Shown here: in pieces, positions 42,241 to 57,097 of the stretch
Layout of the letters: the number at the start of each line of letters is the position of its first letter
How positions within the stretch are numbered: the stretch's first letter is position 1
Origin: Escherichia coli
GTDB lineage: Bacteria; Pseudomonadota; Gammaproteobacteria; Enterobacterales; Enterobacteriaceae
Assembly (NCBI RefSeq): GCF_003334255.1
Contig: NZ_QOWU01000010.1
Reading direction: 5' to 3' (one strand)
DNA length: 64,000 bases
Position numbers and translations under genes: made by a program
Notes under the pieces: generated by a model
The model's database searches: none
Told to the model about the DNA's origin: nothing
Seen by the model: only the letters and a program-made list of their open reading frames with translations

Positions 42241-42325
42241 TTTTATCATTTAGTGTTTTTTGCTGTTTCATAATGTTTCAGGCTGTGCATTATGTTTTTG
42301 ATTATCAACAGATTTGTGATTTTCC

Positions 42326-42395
42326 TTGTTCCAGCTTGTTTCACGTTGTAGCCCTTTGTGCAACGATCGGTGTAGTCACTGGTGTAGTCACTTTT
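42326..42395 (+). promoter_or_regulatory. Left subterminal repeat block: TTGTTCC..GTTGT motif plus tandem GGTGTAGTCAC x2 (candidate Int arm-type / AlpA sites)
   Basis: TTGTTCCAGCTTGTTTCACGTTGTA lies at 42326-42350 and GGTGTAGTCAC-T-GGTGTAGTCAC at 42369-42391. An imperfect direct copy of the whole block lies at 56969-57028. Confidence 0.55.
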
Positions 42396-42415
42396 TCGTA
42401 AAGAGGGGGTAAAAC

Positions 42416-43645
42416 GTGAGCAGAGCAATGAACAAACTGAGCGATACCTTGCTAAGGAAACTTCATGGTAAGCCAGCGGAGAAAAACACGTTTTATAGTG
42501 ATGGCGGAAACCTGAGCGTGAAATATTTAACATCAGGGAAATTGACCTGGTATTTCACATACAGGGCCGGAACGGGAAGGGAGACACGACCCGAACGCAT
42601 TAAGCTGGGAAGTTATCCTGATCTGAGCCTGAAAGCAGCCAGGGAAAAAGCCGCACAGTGTCGCACATGGCTGGCTGAGGGGAAAAATCCACGTCATGAG
42701 ATGAATTACACCGTACAGGAAGCGTTAAAGCCCGTAACGGTTGGCGATGCGCTCACCTACTGGCTTGAGTATTACGTAAAGGAAAACCGCGTGGATTATA
42801 TCGCCCTGAAAAGGCGACTTAATAATCACGTAATACAGCAGATTGGTGCTATGCCGCTGGATAAATGCGAGCTACGGCACTGGCTGGCCTGTTTTGACCA
42901 GGTGGCAAAGCGAACGCCTGTTACTGCCGGATTCGTGCTACAGGCGTGCAAACAGGCGCTTAAGTTCTGCCGTAGGCGGCGCTATGCAATCAGCAACGTT
43001 CTGGACGATCTGAACGTGGCGGACGTTGGGAAAAAACCGGATATAAGCGAACGTGTCTTAAGTAACAAAGAACTTGGCGAATTATTGCAGGCACTGGACA
43101 AAAAAATATTTTCCCCTTACTACGTCGCGTTAATCCGCCTCCTGATTGTCTTCGGAGCCAGGACGGTAGAACTGAGGCTATCGGAGATCGGGGAGTGGGA
43201 TTTTACGGAAATGCTATGGACCGTTCCGAAGGAGCACAGCAAAACGAAGGTCGCAATATTCCGGCCCATACCGGAAGCGATCCTGCCGTTCGTCACGCAG
43301 CTGGTGGAGCAGAACAGGCACACGGGCTTATTGCTGGGGGAAGTGAAACAGGAGGCCAGCGTATCGCAGTATGGAAGATTAGCGCACAGGAGGCTTAATC
43401 ATCCTCACTGGTCACTGCATGACATCCGGCGCACCTTTACAACCATGCTGAACGATTTAGGCGTTGATCCGCATGTCGTGGAGCAGCTTACAGGTCATCA
43501 GATGCCAGGAATGCAGCGAGTTTATAATCATTCCCGTTATCTGGATGCTAAACGCAATGCGCTGGATATGTGGATGGAGCGGTTAGGGATACTGGCGGGA
43601 ACACATGAAAACGTAACCACGCTACCAGTAGCCAGAAGAAAATAA
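42416..43645 (+). CDS. int: Tyrosine recombinase/integrase, P4-type (N-terminal arm-binding domain)
   Basis: 409-aa ORF with a GTG start (alternative ATG at 42428). The N-terminus LSDTLLRKL..KNTFYSDGGNLSVKYLTSGKLTWYFTYR is typical of P4-like integrases. The C-terminus HDIRRTFTTML..LTGHQ..VYNHSRY carries the catalytic R..HxxR..Y set. Confidence 0.9.
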   Translation: MSRAMNKLSDTLLRKLHGKPAEKNTFYSDGGNLSVKYLTSGKLTWYFTYRAGTGRETRPERIKLGSYPDLSLKAAREKAAQCRTWLAEGKNPRHEMNYTVQEALKPVTVGDALTYWLEYYVKENRVDYIALKRRLNNHVIQQIGAMPLDKCELRHWLACFDQVAKRTPVTAGFVLQACKQALKFCRRRRYAISNVLDDLNVADVGKKPDISERVLSNKELGELLQALDKKIFSPYYVALIRLLIVFGARTVELRLSEIGEWDFTEMLWTVPKEHSKTKVAIFRPIPEAILPFVTQLVEQNRHTGLLLGEVKQEASVSQYGRLAHRRLNHPHWSLHDIRRTFTTMLNDLGVDPHVVEQLTGHQMPGMQRVYNHSRYLDAKRNALDMWMERLGILAGTHENVTTLPVARRK

Positions 43646-43694
43646 TTTTTTTCGTGTTTTTTCAGTATGCGCATACTGGATATGCGAACAGATA

Positions 43695-43740
43695 CAACAT
43701 GCAACAATGAGCAACAATGCGGAACAACTACGAACAAGAG
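43695..43740 (-). promoter_or_regulatory. Inverted copy of the TTGTTC(C/G)..GTTGTT motif cluster downstream of int
   Basis: The plus strand reads CAACATGCAACAATGAGCAACAATGCGGAACAACTACGAACAAGAG, the reverse complement of CTCTTGTTCGTAGTTGTTCCGCATTGTTGCTCATTGTTGCATGTTG. Compare 49457-49484. Confidence 0.45.
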
Positions 43741-44019
43741 ACGAAAAAGTGTACGGATTTATAAGTAGCTGATTTTTAATGTGTTACTGGTTTTTTATAC
43801 ACTAGCGAATCACTCTTTAAATAGCGAGAAAAAAGGCATGAAACAATATTTTATGCCTTTGTATTAACATGAATTTAAATGATTTTATCCTGATTATTCC
43901 TGTTTCTGTAAACCATACGACCTCAACATTTGCCAACTCTGAATCATCCTGACACAATCAGACACATCCCAACGCAATAGAACACGAAATAACTCTTTAA
44001 GAAACGAAAGGGGGCAATA

Positions 44020-44208
44020 GTGTTAAGCACTGATCGGTTTATACGTGAAAAAGAATGCGAAAAGCTAACAGGCCTTAGCCGCTCATGCCGCTACCGCCTG
44101 GAAAAGGCCGGACAATTCCCATCACGTCGTAAACTTGGCGGTCGTTCCGTTGGCTGGTCTTTATCCGAGGTTCTGGCCTGGAAGGATAGCTGCAAGGCAG
44201 TTCATTAA
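44020..44208 (+). CDS. alpA: AlpA-family transcriptional regulator / excisionase-like DNA-binding protein
   Basis: 62-aa ORF (GTG start) with REKECEKLTGLSRSCRYRLEKAGQFPSRRKLGGRSVGWSLSEVLAWK. This matches the AlpA/Xis winged-helix pattern (..TGLSRST.YRL...G.FP.P.KLG.RSV.W...EV..W). Confidence 0.85.
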   Translation: MLSTDRFIREKECEKLTGLSRSCRYRLEKAGQFPSRRKLGGRSVGWSLSEVLAWKDSCKAVH

Positions 44209-44353
44209 TCACGCTGGCGGCACACAGCCGCCACACATCAATCATCTGAACACAGAGCTATAACCATGAAGATTGAATATACGCCAGAACGTGGGCGGGG
44301 ATTCGTTCGCCCTGGTGAGACTGGAAAACCACAAAATTGGGGTTTTTCAGGCA

Positions 44354-44383
44354 TAAAAAAAGCGGCCCCGAAATGGAGCCGCC
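44354..44383 (-). terminator. Rho-independent terminator for the leftward (repressor) transcript
   Basis: The minus strand reads GCGGCTCC-atttc-GGGGCCGC followed by T7. Confidence 0.65.
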
Positions 44384-44477
44384 TTTCTGAACAGATAACA
44401 CGCTGCGCCGTTTGTGTGTGTGATCCCAAACATAAGCACGGGGATGATAGCCGCTATCAGGCTGGTGGGCAATGCAA

Positions 44478-44666
44478 TCAGTCTGGTTCAGTTCGTTGCC
44501 ATACCTGCAATGAGCGCTTTTCCCTGTACTCTTTAAGGAATTGCTCAAGGGCAAAAGCACATGGCGCGAATCTTTCTGATTCATGCTCTATCTTTCTGCG
44601 CCGTCTTTTCCGTGCCGGTGATAATGTTTTGGTCAATTCTTTATCGGTCATTGTGTTGTCCTGCAT
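44478..44666 (-). CDS. Hypothetical small basic protein (57-62 aa), second gene of the leftward operon
   Basis: The ORF lies between the RHH gene and the leftward terminator. The alternative start at 44651 (MTDKELTK) has an AGGA 7-8 nt upstream, and an RKRRRRK patch is present. I recognise no homologue. Confidence 0.35.
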   Translation of the reverse strand: MQDNTMTDKELTKTLSPARKRRRRKIEHESERFAPCAFALEQFLKEYREKRSLQVWQRTEPD

Positions 44667-44708
44667 AGCAATGCGCCGTAATACCTCACACCACGGCGCT
44701 GATAGTGA

Positions 44709-45014
44709 TTATTCTGATTCTTTGGCCTTGCGGCGCTGTAGTTCTTCACGAGCGATGGCGATAAGTTGCCCGAGTTCTTCCGTAGCTTTAATACCAATTT
44801 TTTCCACTTGCGCCAATGCATCGAGAGAAGAAATCAGAGGATTTTCACTGCTTCCTTCTGCCTGGCGGCGGGCGATCTCCCCGCGCATGGCGGTTACTAT
44901 GAATCCGGCGTTGCTTTCGCCGTCCAGTTTTACGGATTCCATGCCATCAAAAGCATCATGTGGGATACGAATTGAAATCTGTTTTGATTTGTCGTTGATA
45001 GTGTTTTTTGCCAT
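44709..45014 (-). CDS. Putative ribbon-helix-helix (Arc/CopG-like) repressor of the island
   Basis: Start set at the ATG at 45014, 6 nt from AGGAGA at 45021-45026. The 101-aa protein MAKNTINDKSKQISIRIPHDAFDGMESVKLDGESNAGFIVTAMRGEIARRQ has a beta-strand/helix/helix pattern typical of RHH. It is divergent from the rightward operon. Confidence 0.5.
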   Translation of the reverse strand: MAKNTINDKSKQISIRIPHDAFDGMESVKLDGESNAGFIVTAMRGEIARRQAEGSSENPLISSLDALAQVEKIGIKATEELGQLIAIAREELQRRKAKESE

Positions 45015-45036
45015 GTGCATTCTCCTAAACAAAAGA

Positions 45037-45113
45037 TGTGATTCAGTATACACAAAAAAGAATCACAAAAAACACTTGACCTGTGATTCAGTTGAATTTA
45101 ATTTAAATCACAC
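45037..45113. promoter_or_regulatory. Divergent switch region: two inverted-repeat operators TGTGATT(C)-N15-17-(G)AATCACA flanking a TTGACC(-35)/TAATTT(-10) rightward promoter candidate
   Basis: O1 is TGTGATTC at 45037-45044 paired with GAATCACA at 45060-45067. O2 is TGTGATTC at 45082-45089 paired with AATCACA at 45106-45112. TTGACC at 45076-45081 is spaced 17 bp from TAATTT at 45099-45104. Confidence 0.5.
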
Positions 45114-45201
45114 CTCAGTAAGAGGATGTAAACGACAACGCCCCGAACTGTTTGCGGCAGTAGCGGGGCGTCTAACCAAACCGTTAACAGGAGTAACGAT
45201 T

Positions 45202-45399
45202 ATGGCTGGAACACAGCATACCCCACGTCTGGCGCACACACAAACTGCCTTTGTGTGGCGTTTTCTGGCACTAAGTGCCGGAGAATCTCAAATCATCCAC
45301 GTAACCGCCTGGACGGAACGCGAAGCGCGTAGCCGTTGCCCGTCCGGTTGTGTTGCTGTATTCGCCGCCCGTATTCGTCAGGGGGTGTGCCATGCCTGA
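45202..45399 (+). CDS. Icd-like (P4 host cell-division inhibitor-like) small protein
   Basis: 65-aa ORF preceded by AGGAG. FVWRFLALSAGESQIIHVTAWTEREARSRCPSGCVAVFAARIR fits the Icd-like pattern (F.W.F.A....I.A.SE.EAR......V..FA.R) as I recall it. It is the only plausible part of the 377-aa track ORF. Confidence 0.5.
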   Translation: MAGTQHTPRLAHTQTAFVWRFLALSAGESQIIHVTAWTEREARSRCPSGCVAVFAARIRQGVCHA

Positions 45400-45712
45400 C
45401 ATGACCAATTACCAGTACCTGATTAATCCGCATTTTAACTGTGAGCATGATATTGCTAAAAAGGTTTATTCCGCTGCGGATGGGGCTACTGACAATATAT
45501 CAATGGCTGTTTCGTCAATTGGTAGCCTGATGTGGTATGCGTCAGAAAATAAGGAATATGACGAAAAGGCCATGCGCATTGATATGGGTAATATTGGTTT
45601 GTTACTGGCAATGCTTGGACATTTTGATATTTCGTTACGGTGCACCATTGAAAATGCCACAGATGCATTAAATGCTATAAAGAAAGCGAATACTGATTCA
45701 AATCGGGGATAA
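45392..45712 (+). CDS. Hypothetical protein (106 aa)
   Basis: The ATG at 45392 overlaps the preceding stop, suggesting translational coupling. I recognise no family. Confidence 0.5.
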   Translation: MPDMTNYQYLINPHFNCEHDIAKKVYSAADGATDNISMAVSSIGSLMWYASENKEYDEKAMRIDMGNIGLLLAMLGHFDISLRCTIENATDALNAIKKANTDSNRG

Positions 45713-45718
45713 ATAATC

Positions 45719-46018
45719 ATGAGAACGTATTTATCTGGCTTTACTGCCAGCGGTTATGCACACCCCAAAATTATCCCCGGCGCTATTTATCTGGATAAGA
45801 ACGGTAACAGAGTAACGGTAAAAGAACTGATGTTTGACCGTGTGTATTTTATTCGTGATGGCTATTCATTTCATAGTTCGCTGAACGTGGAGATCTTTAT
45901 TAGCAGATTCCGGCGGGAAATCCCGCTTTCCAGAAATAACCATGTGTCATGTATGGATGTTGATAAAAAACTACAGGAACTGAAAAACATGATTGCCGCG
46001 TGGAGAGAGCAGAAATGA
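45719..46018 (+). CDS. Hypothetical protein, possibly DUF4222-like (99 aa)
   Basis: The core GAIYLDKNGNRVTVKELMFDRVYFIRDGYSF resembles the DUF4222 pattern seen in P4-like islands (recalled from memory). Its stop overlaps the primase start (ATGA). Confidence 0.45.
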   Translation: MRTYLSGFTASGYAHPKIIPGAIYLDKNGNRVTVKELMFDRVYFIRDGYSFHSSLNVEIFISRFRREIPLSRNNHVSCMDVDKKLQELKNMIAAWREQK

Positions 46019-47832
46019 AAAAAGCGCCAAATTTAAAACACCAGCCGCGTGACAAAATGACGGAAGTCATCATTTTTGCGGGTAGTGATGCGTGGGCACA
46101 TGCGAAGCAGTGGCAGGAACAGGACGGGCGACTGGCTGGCGATAACGTGCCACCTGTCTGGCTTGGAGAGCAACAACTTGCCGAACTGGACAACCTGCAA
46201 ATCGTACCGGACGGACGCTATCGCGTGCGTCTCTACCAGGCGGGGTTATTGCGTCCGGGGCTTGTTAATACCATCGGGCAGAAACTGGCAGCGGCAGGTG
46301 TCAGGGATGCTGATTATTACCCTGAAGGAATGCACAGCCAGAAACGGGAGAACTGGCGCGAATATCTGGAACGTGAGCGGGGAGAGCTGGCGGAAAAGAA
46401 AAAGGTAGTTGAACTGCCTGTAAAGAAAAAAGAGCGGGTAAAAGACGATAACGCTTCATCACTGGCGCTTAACCAGATGGGAGCAAGTCAACGCGGCGAA
46501 GTTCTCCTGGCACATTATGGCGGTGAACTGGCGATTCATGCTGACTCTGACACTGTTCACTATTACAACGGCGTTGTATGGGAGCCAGTACAGGATAAAG
46601 AATTACAGCGAGCTATGGCGCAGATTTTCATTGATGCGGAGATCAGCTATTCGCAGAACGCCATTAAATCGGCGGTCGATACCATGAAGTTAAGTTTGCC
46701 TGTAATGGGGAATACAGCCCGTAACCTGATTGGATTCAGTAACGGTGTTTTTGATACCCGGACAGGCGATTTTCGGGAGCATAACAAAAACGACTGGTTG
46801 TTAATTGCCAGTGAATTACCTTTCAGCCCACCAGCAGAGGGGGAAACGCTGGCAACACATGCGCCGAATTTCTGGAAGTGGTTACGCCGTTCGGTGGCTG
46901 AGAATGACCGCAAGGCGGATCGCGTACTGGCTGCATTATTCATGGTGCTGGCGAACCGGTACGACTGGCAGTTATTCATTGAGGTAACAGGTCCAGGGGG
47001 AAGTGGTAAAAGCGTGATGGCGGAGATTTGCACCATGCTGGCGGGTAAGGCCAACACGGTATCGGCAAGCATGAAGGCGCTGGAAGATGCCAGGGAACGC
47101 GCGTTAGTGGTTGGCTTTTCGCTGATTATCATGCCGGATATGACCCGTTACGCTGGTGATGGCGCAGGAATTAAGGCCATTACAGGCGGTGACAAGGTGG
47201 CAATCGACCCGAAGCATAAAGCCCCCTACTCAACACGCATTCAGGCGGTAGTGTTGGCGGTGAACAATAACGCCATGTCATTCAGTGACCGCAGCGGGGG
47301 GATTTCACGTCGTCGGGTGATATTCAATTTTTCGGAGGTTGTACCGGAAAACGAACGCGACCCCATGCTGGCAGAAAAAATAGAAGGAGAGCTGGCGGTT
47401 GTGATTCGCCACCTGCTTACTCGTTTTTCTGACCAGGACGCAGCTAAACGCCTGCTGTATGAGCAGCAGAAATCAGAAGAAGCTCTGGTGATAAAACGCG
47501 AGGGCGATTCGCTGGTGGACTTCTGCGGCTATCTCATGTCGTCGGTAATGTGTGATGGTCTGTTAGTGGGTAATGCCGAAATTATTCCGTTCAGTCCGCG
47601 CAGGTATCTTTATCACGCCTATCTGGCATATATGAGGGCACACGGATTCGGTAAACCTGTAACACTGACGCGCTTCGGTAAAGATATGCCGGGGGCAATG
47701 GCGGAATATGGCAGGGAGTATATGAAACGGAAAACGAAGCACGGTTTGCGTTCAAACGTGACACTGACGGAGGAATCAGAAGACTGGATGCCATCATGTG
47801 TATCGGTCACTAATGACGATAGCAAAAATTAA
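46015..47832 (+). CDS. Replication initiator: primase/helicase of the P4-alpha / D5 NTPase type (PICI pri-rep)
   Basis: About 605 aa with Walker A VTGPGGSGKS and a Walker B-like FSLIIMPDM. The C-terminal half resembles the phage/plasmid primase P4-family domain, and the iteron origin follows immediately. Confidence 0.8.
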   Translation: MKKAPNLKHQPRDKMTEVIIFAGSDAWAHAKQWQEQDGRLAGDNVPPVWLGEQQLAELDNLQIVPDGRYRVRLYQAGLLRPGLVNTIGQKLAAAGVRDADYYPEGMHSQKRENWREYLERERGELAEKKKVVELPVKKKERVKDDNASSLALNQMGASQRGEVLLAHYGGELAIHADSDTVHYYNGVVWEPVQDKELQRAMAQIFIDAEISYSQNAIKSAVDTMKLSLPVMGNTARNLIGFSNGVFDTRTGDFREHNKNDWLLIASELPFSPPAEGETLATHAPNFWKWLRRSVAENDRKADRVLAALFMVLANRYDWQLFIEVTGPGGSGKSVMAEICTMLAGKANTVSASMKALEDARERALVVGFSLIIMPDMTRYAGDGAGIKAITGGDKVAIDPKHKAPYSTRIQAVVLAVNNNAMSFSDRSGGISRRRVIFNFSEVVPENERDPMLAEKIEGELAVVIRHLLTRFSDQDAAKRLLYEQQKSEEALVIKREGDSLVDFCGYLMSSVMCDGLLVGNAEIIPFSPRRYLYHAYLAYMRAHGFGKPVTLTRFGKDMPGAMAEYGREYMKRKTKHGLRSNVTLTEESEDWMPSCVSVTNDDSKN

Positions 47833-47844: not shown

Positions 47845-48069
47845 ACTGTTCACCACTGTTCACCCTGTCATAAATATCTTTTGTATCAGTATGTTATAGG
47901 GTGAACAGTTATTTATGAACTGTTCACCAAACTATTCACTGTTCACCTTTTTGATTGTTTATTGAGCTTCAAGGGTGAACAGTGGTGAATAGTTGGTGAA
48001 TAGTTTTTGTGAAACTGTTCACCCCTTAACATTATGAATTAAAAGATAAAATATCAAAAGGTGAACAGG
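47845..48069. repeat. Island replication origin: at least 10 copies of the 10-bp iteron ACTGTTCACC in both orientations, plus an AT-rich tract
   Basis: Direct copies start at 47845, 47855, 47919, 47938 and 48014. Inverted copies (GGTGAACAGT/G) start at 47900, 47974 and 48060. Degenerate copies (GGTGAATAGT) start at 47984 and 47995. An AT-rich stretch spans 48030-48058. Confidence 0.8.
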
Positions 48070-48119: not shown

Positions 48120-48365
48120 ATGACAGCGAAGCACACAAAAAAATCACAATCGCACGCCCTTGATTTGACGGAACACTGGTTAAGGGTGTCGATAAAAATC
48201 ATCGACCGCAACGCCGGGGAAGGATATGCGAAAGCACATCCCGAACTGATTAGCTCATTCATGACAACGGCAGCTGCAAACTTTGCCACGCTGACAGAAC
48301 GGGAGATTGCCGAAGCGGAACAGGTGACAACCATCAACGTTAAAACCGGAGAGCAGACAGCATGA
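48120..48365 (+). CDS. Hypothetical protein (81 aa)
   Basis: The ORF's stop overlaps the ssb start (ATGA at 48362-48365). I recognise no family. Confidence 0.5.
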   Translation: MTAKHTKKSQSHALDLTEHWLRVSIKIIDRNAGEGYAKAHPELISSFMTTAAANFATLTEREIAEAEQVTTINVKTGEQTA

Positions 48366-48772
48366 CAGCACAGATAGCAGCTTACGGGCGGCTGGTGGAC
48401 GACCCGCAGGTAAAACAGACCAGTAAGGGCACACCGATGACGCTGGCGCGTATGGCGGTATCGTTGCCATGTAGTCAGGCGCAGGATGGGCAGGCGACGT
48501 TATGGCTATCGGTCATCGCATTTGGTAAGCAGGCCGACTTCCTGGCTAAACATCAAAAAGGCGACGTTGCCAGCGTATCCGGCACGATGCAGGTCAGCCA
48601 GTGGACCGGACAGAACGGGGAAACGCGGCAGGGTTATCAGGTTATTGCAGACAGCGTAATCAGTGCCCGTGCGGCACGTCCTGGCGGGAACAGACGCAAA
48701 ACCACAGGCACACAGGGTAATCAGCCACCAGCGGGAGGCGATGACCCTTACGGTGACGGTATTCCGTTCTGA
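48362..48772 (+). CDS. ssb: Single-stranded DNA-binding protein (short, island-encoded)
   Basis: 136 aa with an OB-fold-like N-terminus (AAYGRLVDDPQVKQTSKGTPMTLARMAV), a Gly/Pro/Gln-rich linker and the acidic tip DDPYGDGIPF typical of bacterial and phage SSBs. Confidence 0.75.
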   Translation: MTAQIAAYGRLVDDPQVKQTSKGTPMTLARMAVSLPCSQAQDGQATLWLSVIAFGKQADFLAKHQKGDVASVSGTMQVSQWTGQNGETRQGYQVIADSVISARAARPGGNRRKTTGTQGNQPPAGGDDPYGDGIPF

Positions 48773-48782
48773 GGGGGTGGCG

Positions 48783-49055
48783 ATGGTACATGACCGCATA
48801 GCGGAAGAACTCGAGGCGAAAGGCTTTTACCGGAGGGCGGCGGCGCGATGGGGTGAAGTCATGCTGCTGGTGGAGACAGACAAGGAACGGCATCAGGTTA
48901 CGATGCGACGGCTGGAATGTTCCAGGAAGGCACAGAAGCCACCGGAGCCGCCGGATAACTTCGGAGACCTGAGAAAGGCAGTAGATCGCACTTATGCTGA
49001 AATGGGTATAGATGGTGTAAGCGATGAAATATGGCGTAATTACCCAGACAGCTAA
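48783..49055 (+). CDS. PerC-family transcriptional activator-like protein (90 aa)
   Basis: The internal ATG at 48783 is preceded by GAGGGGG. MVHDRIAEELEAKGFYRRAAARWGEVML matches the PerC/Pch N-terminal pattern (..AE.LE..G.YRRAA.RW..V) as I recall it. Confidence 0.55.
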   Translation: MVHDRIAEELEAKGFYRRAAARWGEVMLLVETDKERHQVTMRRLECSRKAQKPPEPPDNFGDLRKAVDRTYAEMGIDGVSDEIWRNYPDS

Positions 49056-49060
49056 TCAAC

Positions 49061-49085
49061 AGCCGGAGAAATCCGGCTTTTTTTG
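49061..49085 (+). terminator. Rho-independent terminator (copy 1 of a near-identical pair)
   Basis: AGCCGGA-gaaa-TCCGGCT hairpin followed by T8. Confidence 0.85.
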
Positions 49086-49179
49086 CACCAGTTGAAACGG
49101 TATGGCGCATTACCGGGTTTTCGTCACGGTCAGGCATAGTTACTATCTGAAACAAACAGACACAACAGAGGAAAAAACA

Positions 49180-49404: not shown

Positions 49405-49414
49405 GCACGCATAC

Positions 49415-49436
49415 AGCCGGAGCAATCCGGCTTTTT
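49415..49436 (+). terminator. Rho-independent terminator (copy 2)
   Basis: AGCCGGA-gcaa-TCCGGCT hairpin followed by T5. It is identical at 23 of 24 positions to the terminator at 49061. Confidence 0.85.
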
Positions 49437-49696: not shown

Positions 49697-50854
49697 ATGC
49701 CGAGAATAATCGAATTACGCCAGCAGAAAACCGCCATTAAAAATCAGATGCGCGACATGCTGGAGAACGCGGAAAAAGAAAACCGCAGCCTTAACGATGC
49801 AGAGGGCGCAAAATTTGACGAATTACGCGCTAAAGCTGAATCCCTCGATAAAGACATTTCCCGCCTTGAAGCCATTGCAGACGAAGAGCGCAGCAAGCCA
49901 GGTAAAAGCAGCCAGACCACTGACCCGGCAGAACTCCGCAACTACATCCTGACAGGTGAAACCCGCGCATTAAGTACAGGCGTTCCCGCTGATGGTGGTT
50001 ATACCGTTATCCCCGAACTGAACACCGAAATCATGCGAATGCTGACGGATGAATCCACCATGCGCCGCATCTGTACCGTGAAGAAAATCAGCAGCAACGA
50101 GTTTAAGCAGCTTGTTTCCGCTGGCGGTGCGACCGTTAACCACGGTGAAGAGGGTAAGACACGCGAACAGACCAGCACCCCGCAGATTAACGAGGTGAGC
50201 ATTAAGCTGTATCCGGTCTATGCGTACCCGCGCACCACACAGGAAATCGTGGATTTTTCCGATGTGGACATCCTTTCATGGCTGACGGGTGAGATTGGCG
50301 ACACCTTCACGGAAACCGAAGAAAGCGATCTGGTTGTGGGCGACGGTGACAAAAAAGCAAAAGGTTTTTTATCCGTACCCCGTGCAGAGAAGAACGACAA
50401 AGAGCGTGATTTTGGTACGTTGCAGGTAATTAAACCTTCCGAATCTCTGGCGTGGACATCTGCGGACCCGCTGATCGACCTGAAATTTGCATTACGTAAA
50501 AAATACCGCAAAAACGCGGTCTGGGTGGTTAACTCCACGACGGCGGCAAAACTTCAGAAGGTGAAGAACGCGAACGGTGATTACATCTGGCGCGACCGTT
50601 TACAGGCGGGTGATCCTGATACGTTGCTGGGCCTTCCGGTCGAATATCTGGAGTTTATGCCTGATAACGTTATTGCCCTGGGTGACTTCAAACGCGGTTA
50701 CTACATTGTTGATCACGAAACAGGTGTTCGCACCAGACCGGACAACCTCACAGAGCCGGGCTTCATCAAAATTTTCACGCAGAAATATTTAGGCGGTGGC
50801 GTGGTGGATTCGAACGCGATCAAGATTCTGGAACTGCCACAGGACGACGATTAA
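49697..50854 (+). CDS. Major capsid protein, HK97 fold/family, with an N-terminal coiled-coil (delta/scaffold-like) domain
   Basis: 385 aa from the ATG at 49697 (the track starts at 49652). The N-terminus IELRQQKTAIKNQMRDMLENAEKENRSLNDAEGAKFDELRAKAESLDKDISRLEAI is coiled-coil. The body (..GGYTVIPELNTEI.. YPRTTQEIVDFSDVDILSWL.. GLPVEYLEFMPD..) is typical of HK97-family capsid proteins, and the protease and portal genes are adjacent. Confidence 0.85.
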   Translation: MPRIIELRQQKTAIKNQMRDMLENAEKENRSLNDAEGAKFDELRAKAESLDKDISRLEAIADEERSKPGKSSQTTDPAELRNYILTGETRALSTGVPADGGYTVIPELNTEIMRMLTDESTMRRICTVKKISSNEFKQLVSAGGATVNHGEEGKTREQTSTPQINEVSIKLYPVYAYPRTTQEIVDFSDVDILSWLTGEIGDTFTETEESDLVVGDGDKKAKGFLSVPRAEKNDKERDFGTLQVIKPSESLAWTSADPLIDLKFALRKKYRKNAVWVVNSTTAAKLQKVKNANGDYIWRDRLQAGDPDTLLGLPVEYLEFMPDNVIALGDFKRGYYIVDHETGVRTRPDNLTEPGFIKIFTQKYLGGGVVDSNAIKILELPQDDD

Positions 50855-50864
50855 CAGCATACAG

Positions 50865-50884
50865 AAGGGGCTTAAAAGCCCCTT
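50865..50884 (+). terminator. Hairpin after the capsid gene (attenuator/terminator candidate)
   Basis: AAGGGGC-ttaaaa-GCCCCTT hairpin followed by TAGTGTTTT. Confidence 0.45.
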
Positions 50885-50893
50885 TAGTGTTTT

Positions 50894-51466
50894 ATGGGTG
50901 AAAAAATTATGAAGAGTATGGAAATCCGGTCATCGGAAATCACCACCAGCGCCAGCAACACGCTTACAGGCTACGTTGTTCGCTGGGATAAGCTTTCAGA
51001 GCTGCTATGGGGGGAGTTTTACGAAAAATTCCAGCGGGGAGCGTTTACTGAATGGCTTGCGGCGGGTAATGACGTTCGCGGCCTGTATGAGCATGACCAC
51101 AGCATGTTGCTGGGGCGTACCCGTTCCGGCACGCTGAAACTGGAAGAGGACGAAACAGGGTTACGCTTTGAACTGACCCCACCGGATACCAGTACAGGGC
51201 GCGACGTTATCGAACTGGTTAAGCGTGGGGACATCTCGGGGATGAGCTTTGGCTTTCGCTCCCGTAAGGATGTATGGGATACCACAACAGATCCATGCGT
51301 GCGCACCGTGCTGGTGGCGGAACTGTACGAAATTACCGTTACATCGGTACCGGCTTACCCCGATTCCGGCGTGGAGCTGGCCCGCCGTTCCCTGTATGAG
51401 CAGCACCCCGAAAAAATGCCGCGTGCGGATAATCGCCGCTGGTGGGTGGATTTAGCGGGGGTGTGA
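50894..51466 (+). CDS. Prohead maturation protease, HK97 family
   Basis: 190 aa (alternative start at 50909). The pattern GYVVRWDKLSE..FYEKFQRGAF....DVRGLYEHDHSMLLGRTRSGTLKLEEDETGLRFEL..PDTSTGRDVIELVKRGDISGMSFGF matches HK97 prohead proteases. Confidence 0.85.
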   Translation: MGEKIMKSMEIRSSEITTSASNTLTGYVVRWDKLSELLWGEFYEKFQRGAFTEWLAAGNDVRGLYEHDHSMLLGRTRSGTLKLEEDETGLRFELTPPDTSTGRDVIELVKRGDISGMSFGFRSRKDVWDTTTDPCVRTVLVAELYEITVTSVPAYPDSGVELARRSLYEQHPEKMPRADNRRWWVDLAGV

Positions 51467-51467
51467 T

Positions 51468-52679
51468 ATGTGGCTTTTCAGAAGAAAAAAAGAGCAGCGC
51501 AGCATGACGCTTGATGAATTTATGGCGCTGGCTGGCACATCGAACACGGGGGCGGGTGAGTACGTATCATCGGGGACAGCGGAATCACTGCCCGCCGTCA
51601 TGAACGCCGTGACGGTCATCTCTGAGGCGGTGGCTACCATGCCGTGTTACCTGTACCTGGTACGCAATGAGAAGGGGAAGGAGGCCCGCGAGTGGCTTGA
51701 TTCTCATCCGGTCGATCACATCCTCAACGAGCGCCCGAACGCGTGGCAGACTCCCTACCAGTTTAAGCGAATGATGATCCGCCACTGCCTGTTAAACGGT
51801 AATGCTTATGCGGTGATTCAGTGGGGGCGTGATGGTTTTCCGGTGGCTTTACATCCTTACCCGCCGCAGTCGGTGAACGTGGAGCAGACAGGCGAACACA
51901 ACTGGCGCTACTGCATCACTGACGCCTACACCGGAAACACCCGCAACTATTTACCGTGGGAGGTTCTCCACCTTCGTTACTCCACGGATGACGGTTTTAT
52001 GGGGCGCTCACCTGTAACCATCTGCCGCGAATCGCTGGGGCTTGGGCTGGCCCAACAACGCCACGGCGCGAGCGTGATGCGTGATGGCATGATGGCGGCA
52101 GGGGTTATCACGTCAGGCGAATGGCTGGACGGCGTGAAGGGCAAACAGGCATTAGCCGCACTGGAACGCTACAAAGGGGCCAGAAACGCCGGAAAAACGC
52201 CCATCCTTGAAGGGGGTATGAGCTATCAGCAGCTGGGCATGAGTAATCAGGATGCTGAATGGCTGGCCTCCCGTCGCTTCACCATTGAAGACATCGCCCG
52301 AATGTTCAACGTCTCGCCGATTTTTCTGCAGGAATACAGCAACAGCACCTACAGCAATTTCAGCGAGGCAAGCCGCGCATTTCTCACCATGACAATGCGC
52401 CCGTGGCTGGCGAACTTTGAGCAGCAGATAAAAAACGCCCTGCTGGTGGCCTCGCCTGTACCTGGTATCCGGTATCAGGTGGAGTTTGACAGCGCGGACC
52501 TGTTACGGGCCACACCTGGCGAACGCTTTGCCACCTATGAACGCGGCATCAAATCCGGCGTTATGTGCCCGAACGAAGCCCGCGAACGTGAAGGGCTGTC
52601 CCCGCGTGATGGTGGTGATGAGTTCAGCCAGGCATGGAAACAGGAAGTAAAAATCAGCGAGGGAGAAAAACCGGAATGA
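51468..52679 (+). CDS. Portal protein, HK97 family
   Basis: 403 aa. The conserved core (..NAYAVIQWG..G..L.P..P..V....DDGFMGRSPV....E..GLGLA......S.M..G......)  and the gene's position next to the protease fit HK97-family portals. Confidence 0.85.
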   Translation: MWLFRRKKEQRSMTLDEFMALAGTSNTGAGEYVSSGTAESLPAVMNAVTVISEAVATMPCYLYLVRNEKGKEAREWLDSHPVDHILNERPNAWQTPYQFKRMMIRHCLLNGNAYAVIQWGRDGFPVALHPYPPQSVNVEQTGEHNWRYCITDAYTGNTRNYLPWEVLHLRYSTDDGFMGRSPVTICRESLGLGLAQQRHGASVMRDGMMAAGVITSGEWLDGVKGKQALAALERYKGARNAGKTPILEGGMSYQQLGMSNQDAEWLASRRFTIEDIARMFNVSPIFLQEYSNSTYSNFSEASRAFLTMTMRPWLANFEQQIKNALLVASPVPGIRYQVEFDSADLLRATPGERFATYERGIKSGVMCPNEAREREGLSPRDGGDEFSQAWKQEVKISEGEKPE

Positions 52680-53014
52680 ACATAGGGCGACTGCGTGACA
52701 GGGTAACGATTCAGACCCTGAAACAGACCAGGGATATAACCGGCGAAATACTCGAAACGTGGGAGGACGGTCACACACTCTGGGCAAGCGTGAACATGAT
52801 CAGCAGCAAGGAGGCCATTTCATCGGGTGCAGAGCTGGCGATTGGTACCGTAAGGATCTGGATACGGTACCGGAAGGACATCAATGCCACCAGCCGGATA
52901 AAGGTCAGTACGGGGCCGCTGGCGGGGCGTGTACTGAATATCATCGGGCAGCCGCTGCCGGATGCCGCCAGGACACGCCTTGAAATTCTTTGTCGTGAGG
53001 GCGCGGAAAAATGA
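52676..53014 (+). CDS. Head-tail joining / head-closure protein (SPP1 gp16-like, PF05521-type)
   Basis: 112 aa from the ATG at 52676, which overlaps the portal stop. The RLRDRVTIQ...G.....W.....WA.V...S..E.......A.....I.IRYR.DI pattern is typical of this family. Confidence 0.65.
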   Translation: MNIGRLRDRVTIQTLKQTRDITGEILETWEDGHTLWASVNMISSKEAISSGAELAIGTVRIWIRYRKDINATSRIKVSTGPLAGRVLNIIGQPLPDAARTRLEILCREGAEK

Positions 53015-53307
53015 CAGAAGAACTTATCACCCTGGAAGAAGTGAAACTCCATTGCCGCATCGATGGCGACGAGGAAGACCAGTTAATCAGCGGATACATC
53101 GCCGCATCGCTTGAGGCGTGCCAGATACACATAGGCAGGCGCTTTGATGACGGGCTGGAGTTCACGCCAGCCATAAAGATTGGCTGCATGATGTTTATCG
53201 CTCACCTGTATGAAAATCGCCAGATTGTCGCGGATAACGCAAAAACACGCGTACCCATGACGATTGGTGCACTCTGGACGGCTTACCGTGATGTGGGGGT
53301 GTACTGA
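53011..53307 (+). CDS. gp6-like head-tail connector / DNA-packaging protein
   Basis: 98 aa. The N-terminus ITLEEVKLHCRIDGDEEDQLISGYIAASLEACQIHIGR matches the Phage_connect_1-type signature. The gene is 4-nt coupled to its neighbours. Confidence 0.65.
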   Translation: MTEELITLEEVKLHCRIDGDEEDQLISGYIAASLEACQIHIGRRFDDGLEFTPAIKIGCMMFIAHLYENRQIVADNAKTRVPMTIGALWTAYRDVGVY

Positions 53308-53747
53308 TGCCGTGGCAACCATTAAGACGATGCACAGAACCAGGCTGTAACAGGCGCGTGAAGTCCGGCAAGTGTGAGGAGCACAGGCGGGCGGCATGGC
53401 GTGCAGAGGATGCCAGACGAGGACACCGCCGCGCGCGTGGGTACTCCAGACAGTGGGACAAATACCGCGCCATGTATCTGAGTAAAAACCCGTTATGCGT
53501 GCGATGCCTTGAGAAGGGGATATATACGCCCGCCGTGGTGGTGGATCACATTATCCCGATTAATGGCGGTGATGATGTTCTCTTCTGGCCCGAATGGAAC
53601 CATCAGCCATTGTGCCAGGCGTGCCATAACCAGAAAACGAAATGGCTTGATCCGGCAACAAAAAGCAAGCGTGCCGCAGGTGGATTTCGTGAAGAGGAAG
53701 AACGGGCCGCTAACCGCAATAACTGGATGTATGACGCTGATGAATGA
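53307..53747 (+). CDS. HNH endonuclease (packaging-associated)
   Basis: 146 aa with CxxC..C Zn-finger-like motifs and the HNH core VVDHIIPINGGDDVLFWPEWNHQPLCQACHNQKT. It sits directly upstream of terS/terL, as in HNH-dependent cos phages. Confidence 0.85.
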   Translation: MPWQPLRRCTEPGCNRRVKSGKCEEHRRAAWRAEDARRGHRRARGYSRQWDKYRAMYLSKNPLCVRCLEKGIYTPAVVVDHIIPINGGDDVLFWPEWNHQPLCQACHNQKTKWLDPATKSKRAAGGFREEEERAANRNNWMYDADE

Positions 53748-53913
53748 GCGGGAACAAAACCGCCTTATCCGTGGACTTATAAGGCAGCGTGACGCATGGA
53801 AGACACAGGAAACAGGGCATAAAGATAAAGCGTCAGGACGCGCAGAACGCATCACAGCGAAGCGATTAACCGACCGTGACCGCGAGGTTATGGAATGTTT
53901 CCGCAATCGCTGA
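53731..53913 (+). CDS. Hypothetical small protein (60 aa) between HNH and terS
   Basis: The ATG at 53731 overlaps the HNH 3' end in another frame, giving MTLMNEREQNRLIRGLIRQRDAWK.... I recognise no family, and it could be spurious. Confidence 0.3.
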   Translation: MTLMNEREQNRLIRGLIRQRDAWKTQETGHKDKASGRAERITAKRLTDRDREVMECFRNR

Positions 53914-54035
53914 TGAGGCTGTATGACGGGGTGGGGGGCGTTTTCAGGACAAACCCGACCCCGCCGGGCACCGACCGCCTCCTCAAATTTTTATGCACGG
54001 GAATTTTTTGAAAAATAATCTGACGAAAAATAAGC
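53914..54035 (+). other. Candidate cos region (GC-rich block followed by an A/T tract) upstream of terS
   Basis: The sequence GACGGGGTGGGGGGCG...CCCGACCCCGCCGGGCACCGACCGCCTCC followed by CAAATTTTTATGCACGGGAATTTTTTGAAAAATAATC is non-coding. The position between HNH and terS is where HK97-like phages carry cos. Confidence 0.35.
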
Positions 54036-54392
54036 ATGGCAAGACCACCGAAAGCCCCCGCCTACCTGGATGACATCGCCGTGAAGCAGTGGCGGGAAAA
54101 ATCGCGGCAGCTTGCGGAACGGGGAGACCTGACCCCCGCCGACTGGAGCAATCTGGAACTGTATTGTGTCAACTACTCCATTTACCGGAAAGCCGTCGCA
54201 GACCTTGCGGCGCGCGGGTTCAGCATTGTTAACAGTCAGGGCGGCGAGAGCAGAAACCCCGCATTAAGCGCGAAATCAGACGCTGAAAGGGTGATGATAA
54301 AAATGGCCTCCTTGCTCGGTTTTGACCCGATAAGCCGCCGTAAAAACCCACCGGAAACAGAAGAAGAGGACGAGCTTGACCGCCTGGAATAA
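54036..54392 (+). CDS. terS: Terminase small subunit, P27 family
   Basis: 118 aa. MARPPKAPAYLDDIAVKQWREKSRQLAERGDLTPADWSNLELYCVNYSIYRKA...NPALSA....MIKMASLLGFDPISRRK matches the P27-family TerS pattern. Confidence 0.85.
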   Translation: MARPPKAPAYLDDIAVKQWREKSRQLAERGDLTPADWSNLELYCVNYSIYRKAVADLAARGFSIVNSQGGESRNPALSAKSDAERVMIKMASLLGFDPISRRKNPPETEEEDELDRLE

Positions 54393-56037
54393 GTACGCAG
54401 AAGACGTAAAAACGGGCAAAATTCAGGCCTGTAAACGGTTAAAACAGGCCGTTAAACGGTACTTTTCGGACCTTAAAAGCCCCCTTTACACGTTCGATCG
54501 TGAGGTTGTGGATCGGTTTATTGCCTTTTCCAGGGTGTGCCCGCACGTAAAAGGGCCGATGCGTGGCAGACCCATTGAGCTGGAGCCGTGGCAGCAGTTC
54601 GCCTTTGCGTGCATCCTCGGCTTTAAGGTTAAGGCCACCGGACGGCGCAAATATACGAGCGCCTTTATCGAAGTGCCGCGCAAAAATGCTAAATCAACGA
54701 CCGCCGCGATTCTGGCTAACTGGTTTCTGATTATGGAGAACGGTCAGCAGGATATTTACACCGCAGCGGTGAGCCGTGACCAGGCGAGGATCGTATTTGA
54801 TGATGCGCGTCAGATGTGCATTTTATCCCGACCGTTACGCAGGCGGGTGAATATTCAGGCGCATAAGGTGATACACCCGAAAACCAACAGCCTGTTAAAG
54901 CCGCTGGCAGCAAAAGCGGCAACTATCGAGGGCACAAACCCCAGTCTTTCTATCGTGGACGAATACCACCTACACCCCGACAACGGCGTATATTCTGCGC
55001 TTGAACTGGGGATGGGGGCACGTCCCGAAGGGCTGTTATTTGCCATTACCACATCGGGAAGTAACGTCGTTTCAGCCTGTAAGCAGCATTATGATTATTG
55101 CTGCCAGATCCTGGACGGCGAAGAGGTTAACGAATCGCTTTTTGTGCTGATTTACGAACTGGACGACGAAAACGAGGTTGATGATCCGGAGATGTGGATA
55201 AAGGCGAACCCTAATATCGATGTTTCCGTGGATCGTGAAAAACTGGCCTCAACCATTCAGAAAGCGCGGGGTATTCCGTCGCAATGGGTGGAGATGATGA
55301 CAAAGCGATTTAATATCTGGTGTCAGGGGACTACCCCGTGGATGGGTAATGGTGCATGGGCTGAGTGTGCCGGAACGTTCACGGAGGAAGATTTACACGG
55401 TCAGGAGTGTTACGCGGGGCTGGACTTATCATCAACCAGCGATATTTCCAGCGTGTGCTATGCCTTTCCGGTCGGTAAAACCATTATGATGATTTCCCGT
55501 CATTATCTGCCGGAGTTCCAGCTACAGAACCCCGCCAATAAAAACCGCGCTGTCTATCGTCAGTGGGCTAAAGCAGGCTGGATACGCACAACGCCTGGCG
55601 ACTGCATTGATTACGACCGGATCAGAGATGACATCATGCAGGACGCGGAGAAATTTAATATCAGGCTGGTGGGCTTTGATACGTGGAACGCCACGCATCT
55701 CAGAACGCAATTACAGGGGGCAGGTTTTGAGGTGGAGCCGTTCCCGCAAACCTACCTCAGATTCAGTCCGGCGGCGAAATCGTTCGAAGTTTTTGTTAAC
55801 CGCAGGGTGATTGTGCATCGTGGCGATCCGGTGTTGTCCTGGTCGATGAGTAACGTCGTGATGCAGAGTGACGCGAACGCCAATATCAAGCCGAACAAGA
55901 AAAAATCACCGAACAAGATAGACCCGAGCGTGGCGGCGCTGATGGCGTTTGGTACATTCCAGGCAGAGCATGAGGATTTTGCTTTTGATATAAGCGACAG
56001 CCACCGCCAGAAACTGGAAGAATTTAGCGGGGTGTAA
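54376..56037 (+). CDS. terL: Terminase large subunit (ATPase/nuclease)
   Basis: 553 aa with a TTG start 7 nt after GAGGA, overlapping the terS end. A Walker A-like VPRKNAKST, a DEYH Walker B/coupling motif (SIVDEYH) and a C-terminal nuclease-like region are present. The size and position are typical of TerL. Confidence 0.85.
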   Translation: MTAWNKYAEDVKTGKIQACKRLKQAVKRYFSDLKSPLYTFDREVVDRFIAFSRVCPHVKGPMRGRPIELEPWQQFAFACILGFKVKATGRRKYTSAFIEVPRKNAKSTTAAILANWFLIMENGQQDIYTAAVSRDQARIVFDDARQMCILSRPLRRRVNIQAHKVIHPKTNSLLKPLAAKAATIEGTNPSLSIVDEYHLHPDNGVYSALELGMGARPEGLLFAITTSGSNVVSACKQHYDYCCQILDGEEVNESLFVLIYELDDENEVDDPEMWIKANPNIDVSVDREKLASTIQKARGIPSQWVEMMTKRFNIWCQGTTPWMGNGAWAECAGTFTEEDLHGQECYAGLDLSSTSDISSVCYAFPVGKTIMMISRHYLPEFQLQNPANKNRAVYRQWAKAGWIRTTPGDCIDYDRIRDDIMQDAEKFNIRLVGFDTWNATHLRTQLQGAGFEVEPFPQTYLRFSPAAKSFEVFVNRRVIVHRGDPVLSWSMSNVVMQSDANANIKPNKKKSPNKIDPSVAALMAFGTFQAEHEDFAFDISDSHRQKLEEFSGV

Positions 56038-56050
56038 TGAGGTCAGCAGC

Positions 56051-56332
56051 ATGACAGAAGCCGAAATAACGGGATTAATCCGCCGCGTTGCCGGAATCAG
56101 CCAGCAGGCTGACGAACAGGCCACGCAGCCGGACAGCGTGACAGCCGAAAACTATGCGCGTGTTGTTGCTGAGGTGATGCGCCGTGATGGTATAGAACTT
56201 AATGGCGTGGATATGCGCAACATACGAACCAGAGTTCTTGAGTTGCTGGCCTACCGTCGCCGCGTGGAGATGTATCGGGAGAAGGAGAAAATAACGTACC
56301 ACTGGAAGAAGCCGGAGCGGTTGCGGCGGTAA
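56051..56332 (+). CDS. Hypothetical protein (93 aa) downstream of terL
   Basis: ORF starting MTEAEITGLIRRVAGISQQADEQ with a basic C-terminus. I recognise no family. Confidence 0.45.
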   Translation: MTEAEITGLIRRVAGISQQADEQATQPDSVTAENYARVVAEVMRRDGIELNGVDMRNIRTRVLELLAYRRRVEMYREKEKITYHWKKPERLRR

Positions 56333-56589
56333 CTGGTTGATATTCCCGACGGACCAAAAATGGGTGGCTACATCCCTCGCTTCTGAGGACTGTTAACAAG
56401 CTGCCTGAAAGACAGTCACAAACTACGAAATTTTCGCAGTTTAATTAATGATCAGCTTAATCGCTAACCCGCTGATATTTTCGGAAACCTCAATTTGAGG
56501 AAGTCGGCGCGGTAACTCGCTGAACTTTAAGCAAAGTGCAAAATTGCGCTTGCTGAATAATCATTATGATTACGCAGATGATTAAGGAA

Positions 56590-56890
56590 TGACCGAAGGC
56601 GGAAATTCGCCTGTGGTTAATGGGGGAGTTGCAGATCTGCAACTCGACCATGAAACTACGGAAACTACCCGTAGTTTGGGTAGTAAGAGTAACACCCAGA
56701 TTTTGGGTCTTACTCGTGATACCCAAATTTGGGGTATCAGTGGCAACCATAACGACTTTCGTTACGGTTGATGCTTTTACCCCATTGGGGGAAAGGTATT
56801 ACGATAATCATAACACCTACCGAACAGGTAAAGCCCACCAGCCTGATTAACGTTTAACCGGAAAAAAATTCCGGTAGGTGGGGATCCCCA
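56590..56890. other. Palindrome-dense non-coding segment (at least 8 consecutive perfect or near-perfect hairpins)
   Basis: GGCG/CGCC lies at about 56598-56611. GAGTTGCAGATCTGCAACTC is a perfect 20-bp palindrome at 56626-56645. AAACTACGG (56653-56661) pairs with CCGTAGTTT (56669-56677). Further elements are ACCCAGATTTTGGGT, GATACCCAAATTTGGGGTATC, AACCATAACGA/TCGTTACGGTT, ACCGGAA-aaaaa-TTCCGGT and TGGGGATCCCCA (56878-56889). Confidence 0.6.
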
Positions 56891-56968
56891 TATCGACATT
56901 AACGCCCCTCATGAATTGGTGCGCTTCCCCCTGGAAAGATGATCCGCCTGTATATTTCTTGTGTCTAT

Positions 56969-57028
56969 TTGTTCCACGTTGTTTCATACAGTGCACCGAA
57001 CGGTGTAGTCACTGGTGTAGTCATTTTG
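56969..57028 (+). promoter_or_regulatory. Right subterminal repeat block (TTGTTCCACGTTGTTTCA ... GGTGTAGTCAC-T-GGTGTAGTCAT)
   Basis: This is an imperfect direct copy of 42326-42395. The tandem 11-mers lie at 57002-57012 and 57014-57024. Confidence 0.55.
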
Positions 57029-57097
57029 CGATTTTTGGCACTTTTTGCGGTGAAAATTATTTAATTAAATCAACGTGTTATGTGAAATAAGTTATAT

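Follow-up and report, generated by a model that had tools for sequence, protein, structure and literature searches.

The DNA analysed here, called the window below, is a stretch of 64,000 nucleotides from contig NZ_QOWU01000010.1 of Escherichia coli (assembly GCF_003334255.1). Within it, a block of 14,857 bp interrupts tqsA, the gene of the autoinducer-2 (AI-2) exporter TqsA. Our analysis indicated that this block, referred to as the island, is very probably an intact capsid-forming phage-inducible chromosomal island (cf-PICI) that belongs to the lineage of EcCIEDL933, the prototype cf-PICI, and is integrated in tqsA.

Alignment of the whole window to K-12 MG1655 (locus L006, NC_000913.3 1,666,000-1,715,999) showed that positions 282-42240 and 57098-64000 are colinear with this genome in reverse orientation, with identities of 99.98% and 99.94%, respectively. 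The two alignments overlap by 9 bp, ATAACAGCA, which correspond to bases 8042-8050 of L006 and to nt 129-137 of tqsA. Because this sequence is found on both sides, the island is exactly 42241-57097, and since the rest of the window is colinear with K-12, it is the sole accessory DNA there. A first-pass annotation, made by a model from the letters of the window, had proposed the same 14,857-bp block between core genes as the only accessory DNA, and the alignment and the duplication bear this out to the base. The core repeat extends imperfectly to 16 bp (42225-42240 and 57091-57106, 13 of 16 positions shared). The features of the insertion site are as follows.

41334-42240, minus strand: 3′ part of tqsA, cut after about codon 45
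42232-42240: attachment (att) site core attL, left copy of the target duplication ATAACAGCA, from the 9-bp overlap of the K-12 alignments
42319-42394, plus strand: attP, left arm: block of tandem GGTGTAGTCAC repeats that may serve as arm-type integrase sites and lies just before int
56952-57027, plus strand: right arm block of attP, tandem GGTGTAGTCA repeats as in the left block
57098-57106: attR core, right copy of ATAACAGCA, from the same 9-bp overlap
57098-57234, minus strand: 5′ fragment of tqsA, with its start codon at 57234

The frame of the 5′ fragment of tqsA enters the island and stops at 57070. At the other end, a stop at 42246-42248 means that the island gives the 3′ part no in-frame start and no new N-terminus. 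The corresponding 3′ fragment in strain G6/7 is annotated as a pseudogene by RefSeq. The two arm blocks, each 76 nt long and 76% identical to one another (direct repeat family D2), lie one near each island end and would flank the core in the circular form, as arm-type integrase sites do. Open reading frames (ORFs) at the right end (56333-57097) had no family matches in Pfam or PHROGs, and this part is probably attP DNA without coding function. No tRNA gene was found within the 64-kb window. The K-12-like flanks indicate that the host is a very K-12-like strain which gained the island horizontally; they are much closer to MG1655 than to the flanks in G6/7 (~99.4%). Among the ORFs we saw no marker of antibiotic resistance such as cat. 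In the left flank, rsxC contains a tandem repeat with a period of ~96 bp (7186-7707, seen as staggered self-matches against K-12 rsxC), which K-12 has too.

Gene families were assigned by Pfam and PHROGs scans of the ORFs of at least 50 amino acids (aa). The right half of the island is a block of nine genes whose frames overlap or abut as in an operon, and all of them are intact. Its features, and the gene that follows it, are listed here with their amino acid identities to EcCIEDL933.

49697-50854, plus strand: HK97-fold major capsid protein with an N-terminal delta domain, 385 aa (PF05065, E=2.6e-61; 100%)
50894-51466, plus strand: S78 prohead serine protease (PF04586, E=4e-48; 98.9%)
51468-52679, plus strand: portal protein, with portal homologues in PDB (PF04860, E=9e-91; 99.3%)
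52676-53014, plus strand: head-tail adaptor/head completion protein, 112 aa (PF05521; 96.4%, four substitutions)
53011-53307, plus strand: gp6-like head-tail connector, 98 aa (PF05135; 100%)
53307-53747, plus strand: HNH endonuclease, 146 aa (PF01844; 99.3%)
to 53913, plus strand: 60-aa ORF overlapping the HNH gene (phrog_3173; 100%)
53914-54035: spacer of 122 bp before terS containing inverted G-run and C-run elements, candidate cos region
54036-54392, plus strand: P27-family small terminase subunit (TerS), 118 aa (PF05119; 100%)
54376-56037, plus strand: large terminase subunit (TerL), 553 aa, overlapping the terS frame (TerL_ATPase and TerL_nuclease; 98.0%)
56051-56332, plus strand: conserved 93-aa ORF after terL, function unassigned, no PADLOC match (phrog_1561; 87%)

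These assignments agree with those of the first-pass annotation, which had read a capsid, a protease, a portal, two joining proteins, an HNH nuclease, a P27-type TerS and a TerL from the ORFs between 49697 and 56037. The capsid protein is identical at 385 of 385 residues to PDB 9GYI, the EcCIEDL933 capsid, which was resolved by cryo-electron microscopy as an HK97-fold, T=4 shell of 47.5 nm (bioRxiv 10.1101/2025.02.11.637232). The earlier proposal that the island builds small capsids is thus borne out for the identical protein of the prototype. The mature N-terminus of that protein is residue 93, at an SxGxxAD motif (bioRxiv 10.1101/2025.02.11.637232), and this cleavage motif is conserved in the window protein (S93-TGVPAD). 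By gene order, the 60-aa ORF appears to be equivalent to hypothetical gene 1792 of EcCIEDL933. The spacer upstream of terS differs from that of EcCIEDL933 at two positions and by one 1-nt indel. By analogy with HNH-dependent packaging of the HK97 type, it is a candidate for the cos site.

EcCIEDL933 itself lies in the O157:H7 strain EDL933 at ~1,680,154-1,695,588 of NZ_CP008957.1 (locus L005), between roxA and phoQ. The regions at 1.63-1.68 Mb and 1.70-1.75 Mb of that genome hold only lambdoid prophages, and EcCIEDL933 was found in the gap between them by way of an O157 match. All nine packaging proteins of the island are 96-100% identical to those of EcCIEDL933, and the nucleotide identity is 97.7% over window positions 48180-56344. 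Gene order is alike in the two elements from int through the ORF after terL. That the island varies little from the prototype itself, and that its tqsA site had already been listed (PMC7192596, PMC3603311), lay beyond the reach of the first-pass annotation.

The left half of the island carries genes for integration and regulation:

42416-43645, plus strand: P4-type tyrosine integrase, 409 aa (Arm-DNA-bind_3, E=1.5e-18; Phage_integrase, E=2.8e-16)
44020-44208, plus strand: AlpA excisionase/activator, 62 aa (PF05930, E=5e-18; phrog_2790)
44478-44666, minus strand: conserved basic protein, function unassigned, 62 aa (phrog_21027, E=1.6e-15)
44709-45014, minus strand: YlcI/YnfO-family small protein, 101 aa (phrog_6522, E=3e-57 over 101 of 101 profile positions)
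45202-45399, plus strand: Icd-like protein, 65 aa (phrog_1743/6196, "transcriptional repressor")
45392-46018, plus strand: a pair of small conserved genes ahead of the primase gene, a 106-aa ORF (phrog_15327) and a 99-aa DUF4222 protein

The integrase is 91% identical to that of EcCIEDL933 and 99.8% identical to that of G6/7, and AlpA differs from the EcCIEDL933 protein by a single substitution (S22T, 98.4% identity). The 62-aa minus-strand ORF has an identical counterpart in EcCIEDL933 (L005 3882-4070), and the Icd-like protein is 89% identical to a protein annotated there as Icd-like. RefSeq labels the identical 101-aa sequence elsewhere as "YlcI/YnfO family protein"; it is probably a ribbon-helix-helix regulator, divergent from the Icd-like gene. 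A divergent regulator arrangement is one criterion by which PICIs are recognised, and here the YlcI/YnfO-like and 62-aa minus-strand genes face the Icd-like gene.

The first-pass annotation had also described a divergent repressor/Icd-like switch. The divergent regulator and the Icd-like gene are real; the repressor is not the long plus-strand ORF but the minus-strand gene at 44709-45014, together with that at 44478-44666. The plus-strand ORF of 377 aa at 44266-45399 was rejected as a gene, as it has no Pfam match and an Arg/Ser/Cys-rich translation; the two minus-strand ORFs and a separate Icd-like ORF were therefore taken as the genes. RefSeq records a 247-aa plus-strand "hypothetical protein", WP_001304194.1, in EcCIEDL933 (L005 3670-4413) and in G6/7 (locus L001, 5267-6010). 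It lies opposite the conserved phrog_21027 member of 62 aa and the YlcI/YnfO-like minus-strand genes and is likewise Arg/Ser/Cys-rich, and its frame in the window runs on into the Icd-like gene as the 377-aa ORF. WP_001304194.1 is probably a spurious call, a mis-annotation in the RefSeq records of EcCIEDL933 and related elements.

The 101-aa protein is encoded by a regulator cassette of 447 bp (44716-45162). The stretch of EcCIEDL933 that takes its place encodes a 63-aa ORF and does not align to the window cassette, and G6/7 has a different cassette of 281 bp instead. In strains 300709, NMBU-W12E19 and Z1323HEC0108 we found sequence 100% identical to the window cassette. This sharing suggests recent modular recombination among satellites.

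The replication module and the genes in the middle of the island are as follows.

46015-47832, plus strand: D5/P4-alpha-type primase-helicase, 605 aa (Pfam D5_N, DUF5906 and Pox_D5; phrog_864 DNA primase, E=2e-193)
47845-48069: iteron cluster that follows the primase gene directly; GGTGAAYAGT occurs 11 times, in both orientations, with long imperfect palindromes
start of the 48120-48772 block, plus strand: conserved 81-aa ORF upstream of the next gene (phrog_1231)
48362-48772, plus strand: single-stranded DNA-binding protein (SSB), 136 aa (100% identical to EcCIEDL933)
48783-49055, plus strand: PerC-family regulator, 90 aa (100% identical to EcCIEDL933)
ending at 49404 in the 48783-49404 block, plus strand: conserved 74-aa ORF (phrog_1957; 100% identical to EcCIEDL933)

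About five one-mismatch matches to GGTGAAYAGT would be expected by chance in the whole 64 kb, against 11 copies within 47845-48069. As this count is far from expectation, the cluster is real, and its position and repeat structure indicate that it is probably the replication origin. The P4-type integrase, AlpA, the primase-helicase, the adjacent iterons and the SSB had all been named in the first-pass annotation, and the family scans and the iteron count agree with it. A search of Rfam at a permissive threshold gave nothing except two sub-threshold matches to plant microRNAs on the palindromic origin, which were taken as chance.

A terminator-like hairpin of 24 nt, ACAGCCGGAGnAATCCGGCTTTTT, is repeated at 49059-49082, after perC, and at 49413-49436, after the 74-aa ORF. 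The two copies bracket a small cassette just upstream of the capsid-operon leader, which is 260 bp long and has a hairpin of its own at 49558-49605. A 116-bp RefSeq pseudogene, "trigger factor, frameshifted", overlaps the end of perC (L001 9858-9973 and L005 8952-9067, equal to window ~49024-49139), and this call looks like an annotation artefact. A scan for sigma-70 promoters found fewer sites than in shuffled sequence.

Among the ORFs of 42241-57097, no tail, tape-measure, baseplate, fibre, holin, endolysin or CI/Cro family was found with Pfam or PHROGs, as the first-pass annotation had stated, and no protein resembling Sid, Psu, Delta, Rpp or Cpm was detected. The conserved small proteins of the island have no transmembrane-like segment. 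There was no PADLOC match to defence cargo and no credible Rfam match to an RNA family.

Taken against the published criteria, these observations place the island among the cf-PICIs. Such elements are 10-18 kb long with att repeats (bioRxiv 10.1101/2025.02.11.637232), and the island has 14,857 bp between 9-bp direct repeats. It has an integrase at one end and a regulation module with AlpA (Pfam), and a replication module of its own, made up of the D5-type primase-helicase and the 11 iterons of the predicted origin. All members of the eight-gene packaging set are present in the expected order, with strong Pfam scores and 96-100% identity to the prototype. Lysis genes and a tail module, which SatelliteFinder treats as forbidden components, are absent. 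Nothing in the island sequence contradicts this assignment, and the class named in the first-pass annotation is supported by these criteria and by the capsid and packaging identities given above. Small (T=4) island-encoded capsids that package only island DNA, and induction through alpA with dependence on helper tails, are further properties of the class that are known from EcCIEDL933. Another mark of cf-PICIs is an attachment site that prophages do not use; the occupants of tqsA in published lists are given as integrated elements or prophages (PMC3603311, PMC7192596).

The island is not an isolated case. Of 5,426 complete E. coli genomes, ~71 carry the whole element at tqsA, with 80% or more of the query matched. 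Its closest relatives there are in the human commensal isolates G6/7, G1/2 and G8, with 99.4-99.7% nucleotide identity over two aligned blocks, and many O26 and O111 strains carry it at ~98%. The G6/7 element occupies the same tqsA site with the same architecture, and its proteins are 100% identical to the island's over the whole run from DUF4222 to the ORF after terL. It differs in having 281 bp of other sequence where the island has its 447-bp cassette, and in flanks that are less K-12-like. The packaging block is present in 410 of the 5,426 E. coli genomes (at least 80% coverage) and the replication block in 427, the two sets being counted separately. The same organisation is common to elements in Shigella flexneri (98% capsid identity), Citrobacter amalonaticus and Gilliamella, and a locus in Erwinia psidii has a partly matching arrangement, with no adaptor match detected. 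Previous work with SatelliteFinder counted 969 cfPICIs, in 13% of Enterobacteriaceae genomes (PMC10085698).

How such an element lives has been worked out with EcCIEDL933. It is induced by the helper phages HK106 and HK446 through alpA, and an alpA mutant is not induced (bioRxiv 10.1101/2022.09.08.507074). In the same study, its transfer was abolished by mutating eight of the nine packaging genes and severely reduced by mutating 1792, with replication and the helper unaffected. It was transferred from helper mutants in head genes but not from tail mutants, so only helper tails are needed, and lysates of a helper without capsid and tape-measure genes held only small island capsids (bioRxiv 10.1101/2022.09.08.507074). 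These genetics support the earlier proposal that the island needs a helper for its tails. Release of the tail-less capsids of EcCIEDL933 does not require an inducing helper, and tails in mixed lysates render them infective; the heads joined HK106 tails, but not HK022 tails, in the reported tests, and the tail compatibility of cf-PICIs is fixed by the adaptor and the connector (bioRxiv 10.1101/2025.02.11.637232).

As the packaging block is 96-100% identical to that of the prototype, we infer the same mechanism for the island. The P4-type integrase inserted a circle of ~14.87 kb at the 9-bp core, in codons 43-46 of tqsA, as the duplication shows. The island would stay quiescent until a helper phage turned on alpA, and AlpA would then bring about excision and expression, as in the prototype. 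The D5-type primase-helicase and the SSB are predicted to replicate it from the adjacent iteron origin. The late nine-gene block would yield the island's own capsids, the S78 protease cleaving the delta domain at S93, and capsid and portal would form T=4 shells of ~47 nm, as shown for the identical protein of the prototype. HNH, TerS and TerL would cut and package unit-length island DNA from cos, probably just upstream of terS, and the adaptor and connector would cap the head. The tail-less heads, freed through lysis by a co-resident phage, may become infective once siphovirus tails of the HK106 type are attached. This tail partner is suggested by the identity of the adaptor (96%) and of the connector (100%) to their EcCIEDL933 counterparts.

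Several points weigh against this picture. The host of EcCIEDL933 carries 17 prophages, and none of them induced it (bioRxiv 10.1101/2022.09.08.507074). The replication module and one regulator cassette of the island differ from those of the prototype, and how its combination is induced and replicated is predicted by analogy. The integrase is 9% divergent from the prototype's and acts at a different core, so that integration into and excision from tqsA rest on the duplication and the ~71 genomes. Position is the basis on which the cos site and arm-type sites were assigned.

The alternative that survives best accepts the island as an intact cf-PICI and holds that it is stranded in this host, with no compatible inducer or tail donor, so that its main present effect is the inactivation of tqsA. 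That the prototype answers to no prophage of its own strain fits this view, as do the absence of any prophage within the 64-kb window and the interruption of tqsA, which falls after about codon 45 and is not made good by a new start. The release of tail-less capsids without an inducing helper, and their rescue by tails in mixed lysates (bioRxiv 10.1101/2025.02.11.637232), speak against it, and the nine packaging proteins are perfectly conserved in G6/7, which points to continuing selection for mobility. We consider this alternative unlikely.

It is very improbable that the island is instead the immobile remnant of a decayed HK97-like temperate prophage which lost its tail, lysis and immunity genes by deletion. 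Its head and packaging genes are phage-derived, of HK97-type Pfam families, and their best structural relatives apart from the prototype's own are capsids and portals of phages and of gene transfer agents (GTAs), those of RcGTA being the next-best solved relatives in PDB. A remnant would not, however, be expected to have both ends formed by a precise att duplication with arm repeats, or every gene intact. In its left half, the island has an int-alpA-primase module of the satellite type rather than a lambdoid immunity and replication region; the tail module, lysis cassette and CI/Cro immunity of a temperate HK97-like prophage are all absent from 42241-57097, which is flanked by core K-12 DNA. 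The compact architecture recurs in the 410 E. coli genomes and in other genera, and mobility has been shown by experiment for the near-identical prototype. Capsid identity to full-size phages (~38-41 kb) in the phage collection does not exceed ~40%. The capsid matches of 58-65% in that collection are limited to records of 15-16.5 kb, probably cf-PICIs that were submitted under phage names, and to two others, a fragment of 3.8 kb and a Klebsiella record of 106 kb.

Three of the small records in the phage collection are LR881103.1 ("Escherichia phage vB_KppS-Ant", 16,548 bp, 65% capsid identity, also with a primase and a portal), OR544139.1 ("Pasteurella phage Pmp8", 15,321 bp, 58%) and PQ793804.1 ("Salmonella phage As1", 16,506 bp, 34%). 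They are of satellite size, have capsid genes like those of cf-PICIs, and may be cf-PICIs that were catalogued as phages.

A classical PICI or P4-like satellite, remodelling capsids encoded by its helper, would share the integrase, AlpA, the Icd-like gene and the D5-type primase, which are common to P4-like elements and classical E. coli PICIs. We give this explanation almost no weight, since the island has its own capsid, protease, portal, adaptor, connector and TerL, the SatelliteFinder markers that divide cf-PICI from PICI (PMC10085698). A classical PICI uses the helper capsid and lacks the portal, adaptor/connector and TerL, all of which are present here. A P4-like satellite relies on sid, psu and delta and on the head genes and cos of a P2 helper; the island has head genes of its own, and no unassigned ORF is left that could encode Sid, Psu or Delta. 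A GTA of the RcGTA kind, a head-tail cluster that packages random host DNA and lacks integrase and replication genes, is ruled out, as integrase, att sites and a replicon are present and tail genes are absent.

With the island read as a mobile cf-PICI, its position in tqsA allows a further suggestion, which we regard as quite unlikely. The element could act as a reversible switch on the AI-2 exporter, integration removing the first ~45 codons of tqsA and helper-induced excision restoring the gene; the D5-type replicon and the YlcI/YnfO-like cassette might shift its range of inducers and helpers from that of EcCIEDL933. If this were true, satellite activation would be coupled to the export of a quorum signal. 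In previous studies tqsA appears among genes that integrated elements or prophages disrupt (PMC3603311, PMC7192596), and it has been proposed as a candidate for "regulated gene integrity" (PMC7192596), so such a switch would be an extension and not a new principle.

The biology of cf-PICIs, which build their own capsids and borrow tails, was established for the near-identical EcCIEDL933 in 2022-2025. The family had been described in 2022-2023, and what is new here is limited to the attachment site, the replicon swap and the regulator cassette swap. The main value of the present analysis is that it confirms a reading made from raw sequence; it opens no new question. It also provides a base-precise att site in tqsA.

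In comparison with classical PICIs (EcCICFT073 and EcCIED1a) and P4-like satellites, the left half of the island is similar, with a P4-type integrase, AlpA-dependent induction and a primase-helicase replicon, and so is its size of about one third of a helper genome. Those satellites use helper capsid proteins and the helper TerL, whereas the island encodes a full head and packaging set of its own. With HK97-like siphoviruses, such as HK97 and HK106, it shares the HK97-fold capsid with a delta domain and an SxGxxAD motif, the S78 protease and, judging from its genes, HNH-dependent cos packaging with TerS and TerL. These phages have tail, lysis and immunity genes, none of which the island has. 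Their capsids are T=7, while that of the prototype is T=4 and lacks the K-N crosslink (bioRxiv 10.1101/2025.02.11.637232).

EcCIEDL933 is the closest known system, and the differences from it are confined to a few parts. The attachment core is ATAACAGCA in tqsA for the island and GGACATATTT in the intergenic spacer between roxA and phoQ for EcCIEDL933, and the last 25-30 bp before the core at the island's right end are unlike those of the prototype. In the replication module, the 605-aa D5-type primase with its iterons stands in place of a 710-aa DUF927 protein, the likeness between the two proteins being limited to the N-terminal 140 aa (71%). The YlcI/YnfO-like cassette is not that of EcCIEDL933, and a single 106-aa ORF replaces small ORFs of 61, 63 and 80 aa. 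The island is also slightly shorter (~14.87 kb against 15.4 kb). It is a clean case of modular exchange in this lineage, in which the packaging block is that of the prototype while the integrase specificity, the replicon and the regulator cassette differ.

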